A stretch of 32,000 nucleotides of DNA from Candidatus Saccharimonadota bacterium. GTDB lineage: Bacteria > Bacteroidota > Bacteroidia > Flavobacteriales > Blattabacteriaceae. Positions 949 through 32,000 of this stretch are shown in pieces. How positions within the stretch are numbered: the first letter of the stretch is position 1; each line of letters begins with the position of its first letter. A program made the translations under genes and the position numbers. The notes beneath the pieces were generated by a model. It made no database searches. It saw only the letters and a list, made by a program, of their open reading frames with translations, and was not told the DNA's origin. Location: the NCBI RefSeq assembly GCF_000709555.1, contig NZ_CP006873.1, positions 30,001 through 62,000 of the forward strand. The letters run 5' to 3'.

Positions 949-2568
949 ATGCAAGATCAAAAAATAGATTATTATTTACTTATAGGGACTATAATTTCAA
1001 TCTTAATAGTCTTTTTTTGTTTAAAAAAGCCTTTCAATGAAATTGGGTCGAAAAATATACAGTTATCAAATAATATTAATAAAACTATTTTATTCTCTCC
1101 CAAGAAATATGGGGAAACGATTTTAGAAAATGATCTTATTAGGGTAAAAATATCTAATCTTGGTGGGAATATTAGTGAGATCTTTCTAAAGAAGTATAAG
1201 ACTTATAACGATAAAATCTTACGTTTAGTAAAGACGAAAAGTTTCACTTTTGGTCTAAATCTTATAACTCTTTCGGGAAAAAAAGTTGATAGTAATGATT
1301 GGTTATTTACCCCTAATCTGCAAGAAACTCCCTATCAATACATCTTAACTATGAAAACAATTTTTCCTCCCGGAGGTGAATTAAATTATATTTATTCATT
1401 ACCGAAAGAAAAATCATATGAGGTAAATTTTTCCATTACTAGTCGAGGTCTTTGTTCTTTCGCAATAAATAATGCTATTTTTTTTAATTGTAAACAGAAA
1501 TTAATTGGGTTGGAAAAAAATTACAGTTATGAAAATAATTATGCACAAATGTGTTATTCTTATGGAAAGAATAAAAAAATAAAATCTTTAAGTGAAATAA
1601 GACCAGATCAAAATATAGTAAAAAAAATAAATTGGATAGCTAATAAACAACAATTTTTTACAACTATATTTTTTCCTAAAAATACTTTTCAAACAACGAA
1701 AATTCAATCAAAAAGACTTACATCACCATTTTATATTAAATGGGGTTCTATGTTTTCTCCATTAGAATTAGTTGATAATGAACTTAATTGGAAGGCAAAG
1801 TGGGATTTTGTTCCATTAAAGTATAATCTTCTTAAGAAGTATGGGGATAATTTTGAAGATATTATCCCATTTGGGTGGAGGATTTTTAGATCTATTAATA
1901 AAAACTTTTTTTTAAAACTTTTACAATTTTTAGAAAAAACAAAGTTGAATTATGGAGTAATTATTATATTAATGACTATTATAGTCAAACTTATATTATT
2001 CCCCATTACTTATTGGCAATGTAAATTCATTGCTATAATGAAAATGAGACGTTCTGATATAGAAGAACTGAATGAAAAACTGAAAGATGCAGATCCTTTC
2101 CAAAAGCAACAAGCTACTATAGAATTTTATAAACAAATAGGAATAAATCCAATGTCTGTATTTTTCCCAGCAATTTTCCAAATACCAATTTTTTATGCAC
2201 TGTTTAAATTTTTTCCAAATATTATTAATCTTCGAGGAAAATCATTTCTTTGGGCTTATGATTTAACTTATTACGATTCAGTATTTCATCTTCCTTTGAC
2301 TATACCGATTTATGGAAATCATGTTAGTTTATTTACTTTATTTTATATATTTGCGTTTATATTGTATACAAAGTTTAGTCATATAAATAATTACGGAAAT
2401 AATAATCGGCTTCTGAAATATTTCATGCCAATAATAATGCTTTTATTTATTAATAATTATGCTTCCGGACTTTCATTATATTATTTTATATCAAATATTT
2501 TGAATCTTATTATTCTGTTTCTAATTAAGAAAAAAAAAATAACAAAATATATATTGCGTAATAATTAG
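949..2568 (+). CDS. yidC: Membrane protein insertase YidC
   Basis: 539 aa with an N-terminal TM, a large periplasmic domain and a C-terminal multi-TM 60 kDa-IMP core (..PITYWQ...MKMRRSDIEELNEK...GINPMS..FPAIFQIPIFYALF). It has a short basic tail and an A10 run at 2530-2539 near the 3' end. Confidence 0.9.
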   Translation: MQDQKIDYYLLIGTIISILIVFFCLKKPFNEIGSKNIQLSNNINKTILFSPKKYGETILENDLIRVKISNLGGNISEIFLKKYKTYNDKILRLVKTKSFTFGLNLITLSGKKVDSNDWLFTPNLQETPYQYILTMKTIFPPGGELNYIYSLPKEKSYEVNFSITSRGLCSFAINNAIFFNCKQKLIGLEKNYSYENNYAQMCYSYGKNKKIKSLSEIRPDQNIVKKINWIANKQQFFTTIFFPKNTFQTTKIQSKRLTSPFYIKWGSMFSPLELVDNELNWKAKWDFVPLKYNLLKKYGDNFEDIIPFGWRIFRSINKNFFLKLLQFLEKTKLNYGVIIILMTIIVKLILFPITYWQCKFIAIMKMRRSDIEELNEKLKDADPFQKQQATIEFYKQIGINPMSVFFPAIFQIPIFYALFKFFPNIINLRGKSFLWAYDLTYYDSVFHLPLTIPIYGNHVSLFTLFYIFAFILYTKFSHINNYGNNNRLLKYFMPIIMLLFINNYASGLSLYYFISNILNLIILFLIKKKKITKYILRNN

Positions 2569-9097: not shown

Positions 9098-9670
9098 ATG
9101 TTGTCCCATGAACTCTCTCTAATTAAAGAAAGTGCTCAATTGGTTTCCAAAACATTAGGAATGTTAACTTCAGAAATCCAACCAGAGGAATTTATTCGGG
9201 ATCATGGCGGTATTCCAGCTTTTCTAGGACTTTATAATTTTCCCAATACATTATGCTCCAAATGAACAAATAGTTCATGGGATTCCCAATAAAAAACCTT
9301 TATCTGAAGGAGATATTGTGTCTATAGATTGTGGGGTCCTAATGAATGGATATTATGGGTATCATGCTTATACTTTTGCAGTAGGTGAAATATCTGAAGA
9401 CCGAAAAAAACTCATAGAGGTTACTAAAAATTCTCTATCCCGTGGGATATATTCTTGTCGAATAGGGAATAGGACAGGAGAAATTGGATATGCCGAAAAA
9501 ATCTACATGATCTGGGAAAAAATTATTAGAAGGAATGGTCCTAGCTATTGAACCTCAGATAATTAAAAAAGATGTACCGCAGATAATAAGCCTTCAGTTC
9601 ATTTTGAACATAATGTAGCCTAAATGGAAACCCAATTTTACTTTCTACATATAAATTTATATATCAAACG
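9098..9670 (+). pseudogene. map: Methionine aminopeptidase (type I) pseudogene with multiple frameshifts and internal deletions
   Basis: Frame a (9098-9259) reads MLSHELSLIKESAQLVSKTLGMLTSEIQPEEFIRDHGGIPAFLGLYNFPNTLCSK*. Frame b reads PNEQIVHGIPNKKPLSEGDIVSIDCGVLMNGYYGYHAYTFAVGEISEDRKKLIEVTK..GEIGYA, followed by a collapsed middle. Later frames read LEGMVLAIEPQII, ADNKPSVHFEHNVA* and NGNPILLSTYKFIYQ. All are MAP motifs but they sit in at least 4 frames. The track ORF 9318..9551 is one fragment. Confidence 0.85.
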
Positions 9671-21483: not shown

Positions 21484-22841
21484 TCCTCTAAAAAATCTTT
21501 GGAAAGTAGAAGAATTGCGTCACAGAATTATTGTTACGATTTTTTTTTTTATTAGTCTACCGTTTAGGATCTTATGTTCCTTTAGTAGGAATTAATTCGA
21601 GAGAGATAGGTGACTTTATAGAAAATCTGAATCCAAGTACCAAGAACATTATGCAGGTTCTTTCTTCATTTACTGGCGGTGCTTTTACCCATGCTTCAGT
21701 CTTAGCTCTTGGAATCATGCCTTATATCTCAGCCTCTATTGTTATCCAACTTATGGAAATTCTTTTTCCATCTCTAAAAAGAGAAGGGAGAAAAAAAATT
21801 AATTATCTTACTAAATGGCTGACTATAGGTCTTTGCCTTATTCAGGCCCCAGCATATATTGCAGCACTTACTACTCAATTCTTACCATTTTCTGATATTC
21901 CTAAAGCTTATCTATTAGATATAACAAGTTCCCAGGGAAAATTGTTTTTCTGGTTAATGTCTATTTTATTACTTACTACAGGAACATTATTTTCTATGTG
22001 GCTTGGAGAAAATATTTCCAATAAAGGAATTGGAAATGGGATTTCATTAATTATTATGATAGGTATCATAGTACGTTTTCCAGAATCCATAGTTATGGAA
22101 ATCCTAAATAGAATGGAAGTAGGTCACGTTGGTCTATTTTTATTATTTTTTGAATTTATAATTTGGTTTTTTATAATACTATTTTGTATATTTGTTATAC
22201 AATCCGTGAGAAAAATTCCTCTTCAATATGTCAAATATATCCAAGCAAAATATATTCAAAATTATTATTTTTCAATAAAACCGTCAATTCGACAATATAT
22301 TCCGTTAAGTGTTCTAACGGTAGGAGTTATGCCTATTATATTGGCCCATGCCATTATGTTATTGCCAGTAATTTTATTTACTCATATTAGAAATGAAGAA
22401 TTCAAACAAATTGTAGAAATTTTCCAAGATCTTTATGGAGTTTGGTATAATATAGTATTTGTTTTTCTTATCATATCCTTTACATTTTTTTATACCACAA
22501 TTACTATTCCTGTAAATAAAATGGCGGATGATCTTAAAACAAATGGAGCATATATTCCAGGCGTCAACCCAGGTCAGGACACGATTGATTATATAGATAA
22601 TATTTTGGATCAAATAACTTTTTTAGGAGCGATTTTACTTGCAATAATTGCCGTATTGCCCGCTATTGTGGTAAGAATAGGAGTTACTAAGGGATTTTCT
22701 TTATTTTACGGAGGTACATCATTATTAATTATTATAGGAGTAGTACTAGACATATCTCAACAAATAAACGCTTATTTGCTTAATATTCATTATGACGGAA
22801 TGATGCAAGGAAAAAGATCTCTGATAACAAAAAATAAATAA
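21464..22841 (+). CDS. secY: Preprotein translocase subunit SecY; the 5' end is frame-split at a T11 homopolymer (intact only if read as T10, or if translation starts at TTG 21531)
   Basis: The body is 21531..22841 (436 aa, ..[15 protein letters not shown]...[14 protein letters not shown]...). The conserved N-terminus [17 protein letters not shown] is encoded at 21488-21538 in a different frame, which opens after the stop at 21446-21448 with only TTG 21464 as a start candidate. The two frames meet at the T11 run 21540-21550. Confidence 0.9.
21540..21550 (+). repeat. T11 homopolymer at the secY frame junction
   Basis: Counted directly: the t at 21540 plus tttttttttt at 21541-21550. Confidence 0.95.
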
Positions 22842-25568: not shown

Positions 25569-26072
25569 ATGAGGACGATATCTTATACTATGGAAGGTCA
25601 ATATGAACCCATAGAATTACGTTATGGAGGTCCACTGGGAAAAGAAGTGTTCAGAGAAAATGTGAATAGAATACTTTCTCAAGAACTGATTGGCGATAAG
25701 GCATTGCTAGGAATTTCTTTAGCTAAAGTATTAGTCGGGTTTCACGCTTGGACTCTACCCATGCTCCTCAATGGACATCAAGAATTAGCAGGTGATGAGG
25801 TAGCTTCTCAAGATGCATTATTACAAGCTGCTGAAGAACATTTTAAAGGAAGCGAAGGGATGCAACTGAAAGATATTACTTATTTATGCGAAAATTCTCA
25901 CTCTATTGAAGACGTAATGGATCAATTAGTAGGGTACGCGAATTCGATGTGCGTATCCACGACGATTATCTCTCATAGTGAAACCGCTGTAGAACGTATG
26001 GCCAATAATAAACTTTTGCGAATTGAAGCTGCCTCTCAATGGAAAGCTTTCTACTCACCCTATTTACGATGA
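25569..26072 (+). pseudogene. eno: Enolase-derived relic ORF (167 codons, stop-free, about 60% of eno deleted)
   Basis: Collinear enolase motifs all lie in one frame. EGQYEPIELRYGG..GKEV..NVN..I..ELIG corresponds to STGxxEAxELRDGG..GKGV. ALLGISLAK corresponds to ANAILGVSLA. LAGDE corresponds to AVGDEGG. KDIT matches directly. HSIEDVMDQ corresponds to SIEDGLxExDW. TTIISHSETAVE corresponds to [32 protein letters not shown] corresponds to RxAKYNQLLRIEExLGxxAxY. The ORF starts 6 nt after the rpoA stop and ends in an ATGA overlap with rplQ. The regions around the VGDDL metal ligand and the catalytic Lys are missing. Confidence 0.8.
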
Positions 26073-29362: not shown

Positions 29363-31132
29363 GTGAAAAGTACGTTGGAACGGCTAATTCCTGTTCTATA
29401 TGAAGCTGTTACTCATGTAACAGGTATTAAAAATACTTTAAGTCTTGTAATTCAGTATACCAAAAAAGAATTTCCTGGATATATTACTTTAGTTCTTTTA
29501 CCTTTAATGAAAATATTAAAGCAATCTCCTGAAAAAATGGGAAATCAAATAGGAAAATATGTTAAGAAACATTCCCAAATAATTCAATCTTTTCGATATA
29601 TTAATGGTTTTTTGAACTTTGAATGTACTGATTCATATTATAATGAGTTATTAAAAGAACTTTCTAGTAGTAACTTTTTGACAACTACATCTTCAGATAA
29701 GAAGACTCTGATGATAGAATATTCTTCCCCCAATACTAATAAACCTTTACATCTTGGTCATATTAGGAATATGGTATTAGGTCATTCAATATCTGAACTT
29801 TTTAAATCTGTAGGAAAAAAGGTAATAAAAATACAGATTCTCAATGATCGTGGAATACATATTTGTAAATCTATGCTGGCTTGGAACAAATTCTCCGGAG
29901 GAGAAACTCCTGAAAACAGTGGTATGAAAGGTGATCATTTAGTCGGAAAATATTATGTCTGCTTTGAAAAGGCTTATAGGAAGGAAGTGAATGATTTATG
30001 TGCACAAGGTTTTGATGAAAAGAAAGCTAAGAAGGAAGCCCCAATTATGCAAGAAGTTCATCAACTGTTGCGTCTTTGGGAATCTGGAGATGAAAAAATT
30101 TTGGCTTTATGGAAAAAAATGAATAACTGGGTATACCAAGGGTTTAAAAAAACCTATAGACAATTAGATATTAATTTTGACTATACTCAGTATGAGAGTA
30201 ATACTTACTTATTAGGGAAAAGAGTTATTGAAGAAGGAATAAAAAAAAAGGTCTTCTTTTATAAAGAAGACGGTTCAGTCTGGGTAGATCTTACTAAGGA
30301 GGGTCTAGATGAAAAGTTGCTTTTGCGTGCAAATGGAACAGCGGTGTACCTTACACAAGATCTTGGAACAACTATAGAACGTTTTGAAAAATATCCTATA
30401 GATTCTCTTATATTTCTCGTTGGAGAAGAACAAAAGTATCATTTTCGTGCGCTTTTTATCATCCTAAAGAAACTCGGATATGTCTGGGCAGATAAGCTTT
30501 TCCATCTTTCATATGGCATGGTAGAACTCCCTTCAGGCAAAATGAAGTCTAGAGAAGGCATTGTAGTAGATGCAGATGATCTGTTGGAACAGATGAACCA
30601 AGTGGCTAAAAAAATTACAAAAGAACTAGGAAAAGTCCATGATTATTCATCTACTGACTTAAAAACTCTAAGTTTAGGCGCATTGAAATACCATCTCCTA
30701 AAAGTCGATCCTAAAAAACGTATTATGTTTAATCCTGAAACTTCAGTAGATTTTAAAGGAAATACAGGGACTTACATCCAGTATACCTATTCTCGTATTC
30801 GCTCTTTAGAGAGAAAGGCTATGGCGATAGCATCGAAAAATATTCACCCGTATTCTCCAAGTGAAGAGGAAAAATATTTATTAAAAATCCTAGAACAATA
30901 CCCTTCTTTAGTGAAAAGTTCTGCGGAAAATTTTAGTCCAGCTATATTGGCTAATTACATTTATGAACTAGCTAAATCTTTTAACGATTTTTACCAAAAC
31001 GTCAGTGTAAAAATTATTCAAGATAAAAATCTGGATCAGGCTATTTTCCGACTAAAACTTTCTATTTTGTGTGGAGAAGTTTTAAAATTAGGCCTGAAAC
31101 TTTTGGGAATCAATATGCCAGAACGTATGTAG
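29363..31132 (+). CDS. argS: Arginine--tRNA ligase (GTG start)
   Basis: 589 aa, ..IEYSSPNTNKPLHLGHIRN..LG......LSYGMV.L..GKMKSREG..V.....ALKYHLLK and a C-terminal DALR anticodon-binding domain ending ..NMPERM. Confidence 0.95.
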   Translation: MKSTLERLIPVLYEAVTHVTGIKNTLSLVIQYTKKEFPGYITLVLLPLMKILKQSPEKMGNQIGKYVKKHSQIIQSFRYINGFLNFECTDSYYNELLKELSSSNFLTTTSSDKKTLMIEYSSPNTNKPLHLGHIRNMVLGHSISELFKSVGKKVIKIQILNDRGIHICKSMLAWNKFSGGETPENSGMKGDHLVGKYYVCFEKAYRKEVNDLCAQGFDEKKAKKEAPIMQEVHQLLRLWESGDEKILALWKKMNNWVYQGFKKTYRQLDINFDYTQYESNTYLLGKRVIEEGIKKKVFFYKEDGSVWVDLTKEGLDEKLLLRANGTAVYLTQDLGTTIERFEKYPIDSLIFLVGEEQKYHFRALFIILKKLGYVWADKLFHLSYGMVELPSGKMKSREGIVVDADDLLEQMNQVAKKITKELGKVHDYSSTDLKTLSLGALKYHLLKVDPKKRIMFNPETSVDFKGNTGTYIQYTYSRIRSLERKAMAIASKNIHPYSPSEEEKYLLKILEQYPSLVKSSAENFSPAILANYIYELAKSFNDFYQNVSVKIIQDKNLDQAIFRLKLSILCGEVLKLGLKLLGINMPERM

Positions 31133-31135
31133 TCT

Positions 31136-31922
31136 ATGTTTGATATCCCGTCAAGGAAGTATTGAGTAAGATTTCAGAACCCATAAAAGAATTACGTCGT
31201 GTTTTACTTAATGCTGATGTGAATTTGAAAGTAGCTAAAAAAGTTCTAATAAAGATTGTACACAGTGAACTCGTAGAACTTCTGGGTCTACCAGGTAAAA
31301 CAACTTTTTCCGTCAAATTAGCTTCTTACTTGTCCAGTAAAGAACGGAAAAATCCTTTATTAGTATCTGTTGATATTTCACGACCTGCAGCAATAGAACA
31401 ACTTAAAAAATCATATGCGAGAGTTAAGTGTAATGATGTATTAATAATAGATCACGCAGGACGTATAGATGAAGCTCTGATGAATGAAATCAAATATCTT
31501 TATCAAGAAAGATGTCGAGACTCTTTTTGTAGACAGGACAAGATTCAGTGAATCCCGCACCACGATATTTTAAATTATGAAGGCGGACAAACTAGATGGA
31601 GCACTAACTATTCGAAGTGTTGGACCCATTAAATTCATAAGCACTGGTGAAAATATGAGTATTACGAGTTTCTGCAACAACTAAAAAAAATACCAGGATG
31701 AAAGAATTTTCCTTTAAAATCATTGAGGCTATTATCTATTCTCTGACTCCTAAAGAACGGAAACATCCTAATATTATCAATCGAAAAAACCGAATCGCTA
31801 GTGAGTCTGTAACCTCTGAAGAAAAATTTCTACTTAAGCAATTAGAACATATGAGAAAATTAATAAATCCTTCGATAAAAAATATAATCACTACTATTTT
31901 TTCTGTAATATCTGATCTATGA
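31136..31922 (+). pseudogene. ffh: Signal recognition particle protein Ffh (SRP54) pseudogene, frameshifted and heavily deleted
   Basis: The ATG at 31136 gives MFDIPSRKY* (the Ffh N-terminus is MFDNLS). Later fragments are in other frames: IKELRRVLLNADVNLKVAKK (N domain); GLPGKTTFSVKLASYL...PLLVSVDISRPAAIEQL (the P-loop GLQGSGKTT shortened by 2 residues); VLIIDHAGRIDEALMNEIK (DTAGR changed to DHAGR); DKLDGALTIRSVGPIKFISTGENM (DARGG is lost from TKLDGDARGGAALS..PIKFxGxGE); and IIEAIIYSLTPKERKHPNIIN.KNRIASESV (M domain). The whole is about 790 bp versus about 1.3 kb intact. Track ORFs 31162..31551 and 31698..31922 are fragments of it. Confidence 0.88.
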
Positions 31923-31945
31923 CAGACTCTTCTTCTAAGGAAAAG

Positions 31946-32000
31946 ATGATCTGTATCATGTTTTCTAACGGTAAATCAAAAAAATTTCCATTGGGAACTT
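31946..32000 (+). CDS. thrS: Probable threonine--tRNA ligase, N-terminal fragment (continues right of window)
   Basis: The ATG at 31946 gives MICIMFSNGKSKKFPLGT.., resembling the ThrS TGS-domain start MIKITLPDGSxKEFxxGxT. Only 18 codons are visible. Confidence 0.4.
   Translation, partial: MICIMFSNGKSKKFPLGT

Follow-up and report, generated by a model that had tools for sequence, protein, structure and literature searches.

Remnant of ffh, the gene of bacterial SRP54, between argS and thrS of Candidatus Walczuchella monophlebidarum

SRP loss in reduced genomes and the place of the window strain

Neither the RNA nor the protein of the signal recognition particle (SRP) is present in Sulcia muelleri DMIN, Carsonella, Hodgkinia, Tremblaya, Zinderia and Blochmannia vafer (Matelska et al. 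2016, PMC4779614). The 32-kb stretch of DNA analysed here (the window) belongs to Candidatus Walczuchella monophlebidarum, the symbiont of Llaveia axin axin, whose published genome comprises 309,299 bp. Similarly to the symbionts listed above, the window strain is an obligate intracellular organism of the ~300 kb genome size class without a functional Ffh, and Sulcia belongs to the same bacterial (flavobacterial) order. In the genomes surveyed in PMC4779614 ffh is simply absent; in the window, however, a recognisable remnant of the gene is extant, while SecY and YidC are intact. Since the remnant can still be recognised, the process of loss is caught midway. An initial annotation of this DNA, made from the sequence alone, had found the decay surprising on the grounds that ffh is near-universal and essential; these grounds do not hold for genomes of such a size (PMC4779614).

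Erosion of the same kind has been described in the same organism and genus. According to [quoted passage not shown] (MBE 2025, PMC12188211), most of the 11 COG-U (trafficking/secretion) genes have disappeared or become pseudogenes across Walczuchella, a state described there as typical of tiny symbiont genomes; the original Walczuchella genome paper counts 27 pseudogenes (GBE 2014, PMC3971599). The decay of ffh in the window is the same phenomenon. In the accessible portions of the main texts of PMC3971599 and PMC12188211 ffh is not named, and neither a per-lineage map of ffh lesions nor the open copy of 309 codons dealt with below is described. Precedents for an SRP that is dispensable, either with a small set of membrane proteins or by takeover through YidC/Oxa1, are provided by mitochondria, which lost the bacterial SRP (Pyrih et al. 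2021, PMC8321541), and by Streptococcus mutans, which is viable in an SRP-independent manner through YidC2 (PMC8546722), although both concern other lineages and other mechanisms than those of Walczuchella.

The loss of ffh in the window is real, ordinary and essentially already known, because both the loss of SRP in symbionts of similar genome size and the erosion of trafficking genes in Walczuchella have been published. What is modestly new is the listing of two of its fragments as RefSeq proteins and the presence, in a Drosicha-type relative, of a shrunken copy that is open in frame over 309 codons. The remnant captures, nucleotide by nucleotide, an intermediate stage in the loss of the near-universal SRP, with SecY and YidC still intact, and it takes its place in a graded series that leads from the intact gene (free-living organisms) through 940 bp (Drosicha symbionts), 787 bp (window) and an N-domain stub (Icerya/Crypticerya symbionts) to nothing (Uzinura). 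Its use lies in serving as a teaching example and in correcting the annotation.

Position and content of the ffh remnant

We consider the locus at 31136-31922 (Table 1) to be what is left of ffh (bacterial SRP54), without function and evolving neutrally, with a probability of about 0.93. In the window strain ffh is dead and is being deleted piecemeal via many small and medium-sized deletions; 787 nt are left of the ~1,329 nt of an intact gene, that is, 41% is gone. With 11 intact Ffh proteins of Bacteroidota as queries, tblastn of the 32-kb window gave collinear Ffh matches with E-values to 2e-21: reference residues 27-204 match 31171-31491 (frame 1), residues 248-278 match 31589-31657 (frame 2; 58-61% identity) and residues 360-423 match 31686-31865 (frame 3). 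In Pfam, fragment 1 matches SRP54_N (E 1.3e-5, 25.8 bits, cutoff 22.4) and the SRP54 GTPase domain (E 2.3e-12, 47.4 bits, cutoff 22.7), and fragment 3 matches SRP_SPB (E 3e-10, 40.8 bits, cutoff 27; profile positions 36-90 of 91), all three matches exceeding the curated cut-offs.

A custom frameshift-aware protein-to-DNA alignment, used for the ffh remnants with a reference of 442 codons, aligned 249 of the 442 (140 identical) and required at least six changes of frame. The deletions that it revealed include reference residues 12-26, 50-71, 89-109, 148-173, 280-332 and 349-367 and several smaller ones; according to the lesion table, those within fragment 1 (50-71, 89-109, 148-173 and 194-195) are in frame. 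The ancestral start lies 3 nt past the argS stop and its frame closes after 9 codons; all intact Bacteroidota Ffh proteins recovered downstream of argS begin, as it does, with MFD. The initial annotation had described N-, G- and M-domain motifs of Ffh in the correct order but scattered over several frames with stops, about 40% of the length missing, and the P-loop and G3 motifs reading GLPGKTT and DHAGR. Pfam, tblastn and the alignment bear out this description, with three fragments in three frames.

Table 1 Features of the window that are relevant to the ffh remnant (window coordinates).
Feature	Position	Strand	Content	Context or evidence
ffh remnant	31136-31922	+	787 nt	between argS and thrS start
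ancestral ffh start	31136..31165	+	ATG-TTT-GAT at 31136-31144; MFDIPSRKY, TGA at 31163-31165	frameshift-aware alignment
fragment 1	31162..31551	+	129-codon ORF, TTG start; shrunken N domain and GTPase domain	Pfam, tblastn
fragment 2	31577..31684	+	35-codon ORF, second frame; G4-G5 region KLDG......ALTIRSV..GPIKFISTGENM	tblastn
fragment 3	31698..31922	+	74-codon ORF, third frame; C-terminal part of M domain	Pfam, tblastn
argS	29363..31132	+	intact, full length, 589 aa, AID37373.1	upstream flank
thrS start	31919..32000	+	candidate ATGs 31919, 31946, 31958; runs off window	downstream flank
secY	21531..22841	+	intact, 436 aa	Pfam SecY E 1.3e-83, profile positions 1-305/306
yidC	949..2568	+	intact, 539 aa, AID37333.1	Pfam 60KD_IMP, YidC_periplas

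A functional SRP54 needs one ORF of ~440-455 aa that comprises the N, G and M domains, whereas the remnant offers three pieces, of 129, 35 and 74 aa, each in a frame of its own. In fragment 1 the LLNADVN motif is retained; the G1 P-loop, GxxGxGKT(T) in functional proteins, is truncated to GLPGKTT (LLGLPGKTT, within ELLGLPGKTTF), the 21-residue deletion 89-109 having taken the first half of the P-loop and the strand that precedes it, and G3 reads DHAGR (IIDHAGR) instead of DTAGR. G4 (TKxD) is represented by DKLDG, in a frame different from that of G1-G3. Of the DARGG loop, the DTRGGA residues are deleted, and this deletion is common to three of the related lineages described below (L081, L091 and L092). 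Reference residues 280-359, which hold the methionine-rich hydrophobic signal-peptide groove and the finger loop, are missing upstream of fragment 3. Within this fragment the SRP-RNA-binding motif is degraded (SLTPKERKHPNIINRKNRIASES); where the consensus is SMTxxER..P.....SRxxRIAxGSG, tblastn aligns SLTPKERKHPNIIN--RKNRIASES. The remnant is devoid of the catalytic and substrate-binding elements required of SRP54. The Rfam search of the 32-kb window returned no match to SRP RNA, either at the gathering threshold or at E<=1.

Among 80 Bacteroidota loci fetched around argS, 11 carry ffh downstream of argS, intact (440-447 aa) in 10 cases, and in the free-living Bacteroidota loci the two genes are directly adjacent wherever the coordinates were checked. 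Since ffh follows argS in 11 free-living Bacteroidota, the remnant occupies the ancestral slot. Its position, adjacent to argS and shared with same-site remnants in seven other Walczuchella lineages, is the orthologous position that is expected of a unitary pseudogene. The flanks had been called intact: this stands for argS, which is full length in the window, while the intactness of thrS is not visible from the window and is known via GenBank, where ThrS of the Walczuchella genome is an intact protein of 635 aa (AID37374.1). The accessions of ArgS (AID37373) and ThrS (AID37374) are consecutive, therefore the original GenBank annotation placed no protein between argS and thrS. The view of the initial annotation that the decay is specific to the gene agrees with the state of argS, thrS, valS, secY and yidC around ffh, all of which are intact in the window genome. 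SecY is the translocon to which SRP would deliver and is still encoded in the window, and YidC is a membrane insertase that could act independently of SRP.

The stop of the last fragment overlaps the ATG at 31919 (ATGA). A reading of this overlap as translational coupling to thrS was played down, because the alignment of the Uzinura ThrS (MICIKF...) and the start of the 635-aa GenBank protein put the real thrS start 27-39 nt downstream. Scanning 30900-32000 for sigma-70 promoters and terminators gave fewer matches than were found in shuffled sequence.

RefSeq lists fragment 1 as WP_038436085.1, "signal recognition particle receptor subunit alpha" (129 aa), and fragment 3 as WP_038436086.1, "hypothetical protein" (74 aa). 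Both look like annotation errors, which should be merged into one ffh pseudogene. The 217-aa and 76-aa ffh fragments of the Drosicha symbionts are likewise annotated as proteins (YBU89157.1 and YBU89156.1).

The argS-thrS interval in related symbionts

The argS-thrS interval was compared in seven other Walczuchella lineages (strain names are those of PMC12188211). Drosicha-type strains (DRPI, which is L081; the DRCO-type L088-L090; and L091) carry a remnant of 940 bp, which shows ~17 gaps relative to intact Ffh, every one of them in frame. With the exception of L091, a single TGA stop divides it into ORFs of 217 aa and 76 aa. Its lesions comprise a P-loop reading GSGQTT (the Walker-A Lys replaced by Gln), a G3 motif reading DHAVR (Gly replaced by Val), the deletion of DTRGGA and the change of the ATG start to CTG. 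In L091 (Logan assembly of SRR21677114, 5778-6707) TTA stands where the sister strains have TGA, which results in an uninterrupted ORF of 309 codons that spans the whole shrunken ffh in a genome of ~30% GC; here too Gln replaces the P-loop Lys and CTG the ancestral ATG. The remnant of L092 (ENA assembly) has 7 in-frame stops and 5 frameshifts, and its deletion boundaries differ. In the Icerya/Crypticerya subclade (L082, L083, L085 and L087) N-domain residues 1 to ~112 are kept, among them stretches that the window copy has lost, and ffh is otherwise reduced to the C-terminal "SGTSIVEFLLKQLEQ". The lesions are largely lineage-specific. The ancestor of Walczuchella still carried an ffh that was far more complete.

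The nearest sequenced symbiont genus is represented by Candidatus Uzinura diaspidicola (CP003263), which shares the gene order valS-argS-[ffh]-thrS-infC-rplT with the window. While the window keeps a remnant of 787 nt, ffh is completely excised at this site in Uzinura, where the argS stop lies 2 nt from the thrS start and no trace of ffh was detected. The comparison of this interval among related endosymbionts, which had been suggested along with the initial annotation, is thus in keeping with a decay of ffh: the Walczuchella remnants differ by lineage and the Uzinura site is without the gene.

The alignment around 31560-31600 contains deletions in conflict with each other. An identical deletion of 30 nt (NDILNFDGVV) is common to L081 and L092 and absent from the window, while deletions of 6 nt and 12 nt are common to the window and L081 and absent from L092. 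This implies that at least one identical deletion arose twice, or that an ancestral polymorphism was sorted differently.

In the Icerya/Crypticerya clade argS is a fragment of 61-70 aa that corresponds to the DALR domain (L082 14726-15020, L083 14755-14967, L085 14712-14897, L087 14641-14826), and the entire gap between valS and thrS amounts to only ~670-930 bp. With argS cut down to the DALR fragment, arginyl-tRNA synthetase appears to be lacking in the symbionts of this clade.

Sister lineages show decay of the Sec translocon. SecY is a 172-aa fragment in DRPI (L081 2252-2770), it is not called in ICSE, and it is fused to IF-1 in CRMU and CRGE (L087 6758-8258 and L083 6893-8479); in the window strain it is full-length (436 aa).

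Alternative readings, proposed mechanism and further features of the window

Between the window and L081 the divergence of the remnant (K = 0.080) exceeds that of the neighbouring valS and argS (dS 0.042-0.055, dN 0.011-0.013). With changes between the two polarised by L092 for per-branch rates, the substitution rate of the remnant is 1.3-1.9 times the rate of the third codon positions of the flanks on each of three branches, including that of L081 (Drosicha). As its divergence equals or exceeds that of synonymous sites in the flanks, the remnant is evolving neutrally, as is expected of a unitary pseudogene. A deficit of indels on the L081 branch was considered as a sign of constraint and rejected; it is not significant (about 0.06, our own estimate), because the Drosicha branch has only about half the length of the window branch.

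Some features of the relatives would fit a product that is still in use. The fragments, or the 309-aa in-frame "mini-Ffh" of the relatives, might still be translated and selected as a GTPase-dead ribosome- or RNA-binding factor, or translation of the locus might be needed for the expression of thrS-infC-rpmI-rplT. The ~17 gaps of the Drosicha-type lineage are all in frame and the L091 ORF is uninterrupted over 309 codons at ~30% GC; the ORF of the last fragment is uninterrupted in the window as well as in L081, L091 and L092 and ends 24-36 nt before the thrS start or overlaps it; the two largest window fragments are still ORFs, listed as proteins by RefSeq, and peptides might conceivably be expressed from them. 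We nevertheless hold such a residual function to be improbable. On none of the branches, that of L081 included, does the remnant change more slowly than synonymous sites; the Drosicha copy itself has lost the Walker-A Lys (GSGQTT), the DTAGR motif (DHAVR) and the ATG start (CTG); the symbionts of the window and of L092 persist in spite of the many frameshifts and stops in their copies; and in the last ORF the differences between the window and L081 appear, by eye from the alignment, to be mostly amino-acid-changing.

A related proposal assigns selection to the past. On the stem of the Llaveia and Drosicha lineages, ffh might first have shrunk by exclusively in-frame deletions to a "mini-Ffh" of ~310 residues without the DARGG loop and the signal-peptide groove, to be pseudogenized later, and independently, in the Llaveia (window) and L092 lineages. 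If this were so, there would have been a period of selection for a truncated, non-targeting product or for translation through the argS-ffh-thrS operon. The chance that all stem deletions are multiples of three is ~1e-3 to 1e-4 if there were 6-8 independent neutral events (our own estimate, in which the number of events is uncertain). The all-in-frame deletions of the Drosicha copies hint at an earlier phase of shrinkage under some selection for an open frame; the whole sequence of events we regard as unlikely.

It is very unlikely that the window copy is the redundant remnant of a duplication, with an intact second ffh or a horizontally acquired replacement elsewhere. The window covers 32 kb of a 309-kb genome, which leaves room for such a copy; the remnant, however, sits in the ancestral syntenic slot, and tblastn with the 11 Ffh queries detected no second ffh-like sequence within the 32-kb window. 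Duplicates are very rare in symbiont genomes of 300 kb, which also counts against a second copy. Used as a query against 5.8 billion protein clusters, the 309-aa protein of the relative retrieved no intact Walczuchella Ffh among called proteins: the one close match was a Drosicha-type fragment of 218 aa, so that Walczuchella-like Ffh is represented by fragments only, and the rest were intact Ffh proteins of other genera with 41-52% identity, that of the Geopemphigus symbiont being the highest-ranked named match. As the database includes both the GenBank and the RefSeq proteins of the Walczuchella genome, nowhere has an intact Ffh been called for Walczuchella. The available part of the genome description in PMC3971599 gives Sec, Tat and YidC and no SRP component. 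With the Ffh G domain as bait, no ftsY was found in the 92 fetched loci either.

An artefact of sequencing or assembly, by which the frameshifts and deletions would be errors and ffh would be intact in the organism, has a negligible probability, even though the exact strain is known from a single assembly and some of the reads came from 454 sequencing, with its tendency to homopolymer errors. The coverage of this assembly, which combined Illumina with 454, was 1571x. Relative to the sister lineage the lesions of the window are indels of 5, 11, 30, 66, ~40, 12 and 6 nt outside homopolymers. At least seven independently assembled relatives carry homologous, differently decayed remnants, and key losses of motifs, such as the DTRGGA deletion, recur across assemblies. 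Rescue of the reading frame by transcriptional slippage was rejected as well, because the frameshifts lie outside homopolymers and essential motifs are deleted. Both circumstances by which the initial annotation could have been overturned, an intact copy elsewhere and an error of assembly, are thereby opposed by the evidence.

For the preferred reading, a dead and neutrally evolving ffh, we propose the following course. Selection on co-translational membrane targeting may have been relaxed as the membrane proteome of the symbiont shrank, envelope and energy functions having probably been lost or passed to the host or to the Sodalis co-symbiont. Owing to the deletional bias of endosymbionts, the gene would now be disappearing. 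Those few membrane proteins that remain would presumably be inserted in an SRP-free manner through the intact SecY and YidC.

The window contains a second pseudogene at 9098-9620, between tsf and rpsL, which consists of fragments of methionine aminopeptidase (map). Within it, an ORF of 77 aa (9318-9551) matches Peptidase_M24 (E 1.8e-8), and adjoining short ORFs resemble further pieces of map. Another ORF, at 25569-26072, lies between rpoA and rplQ, overlaps the start of rplQ and has no Pfam match. It measures 157-167 aa and is conserved in the Llaveia/Drosicha clade (L081 6179-6652, L088 179-652); at its position the Icerya clade has ~600 bp of uncalled sequence.
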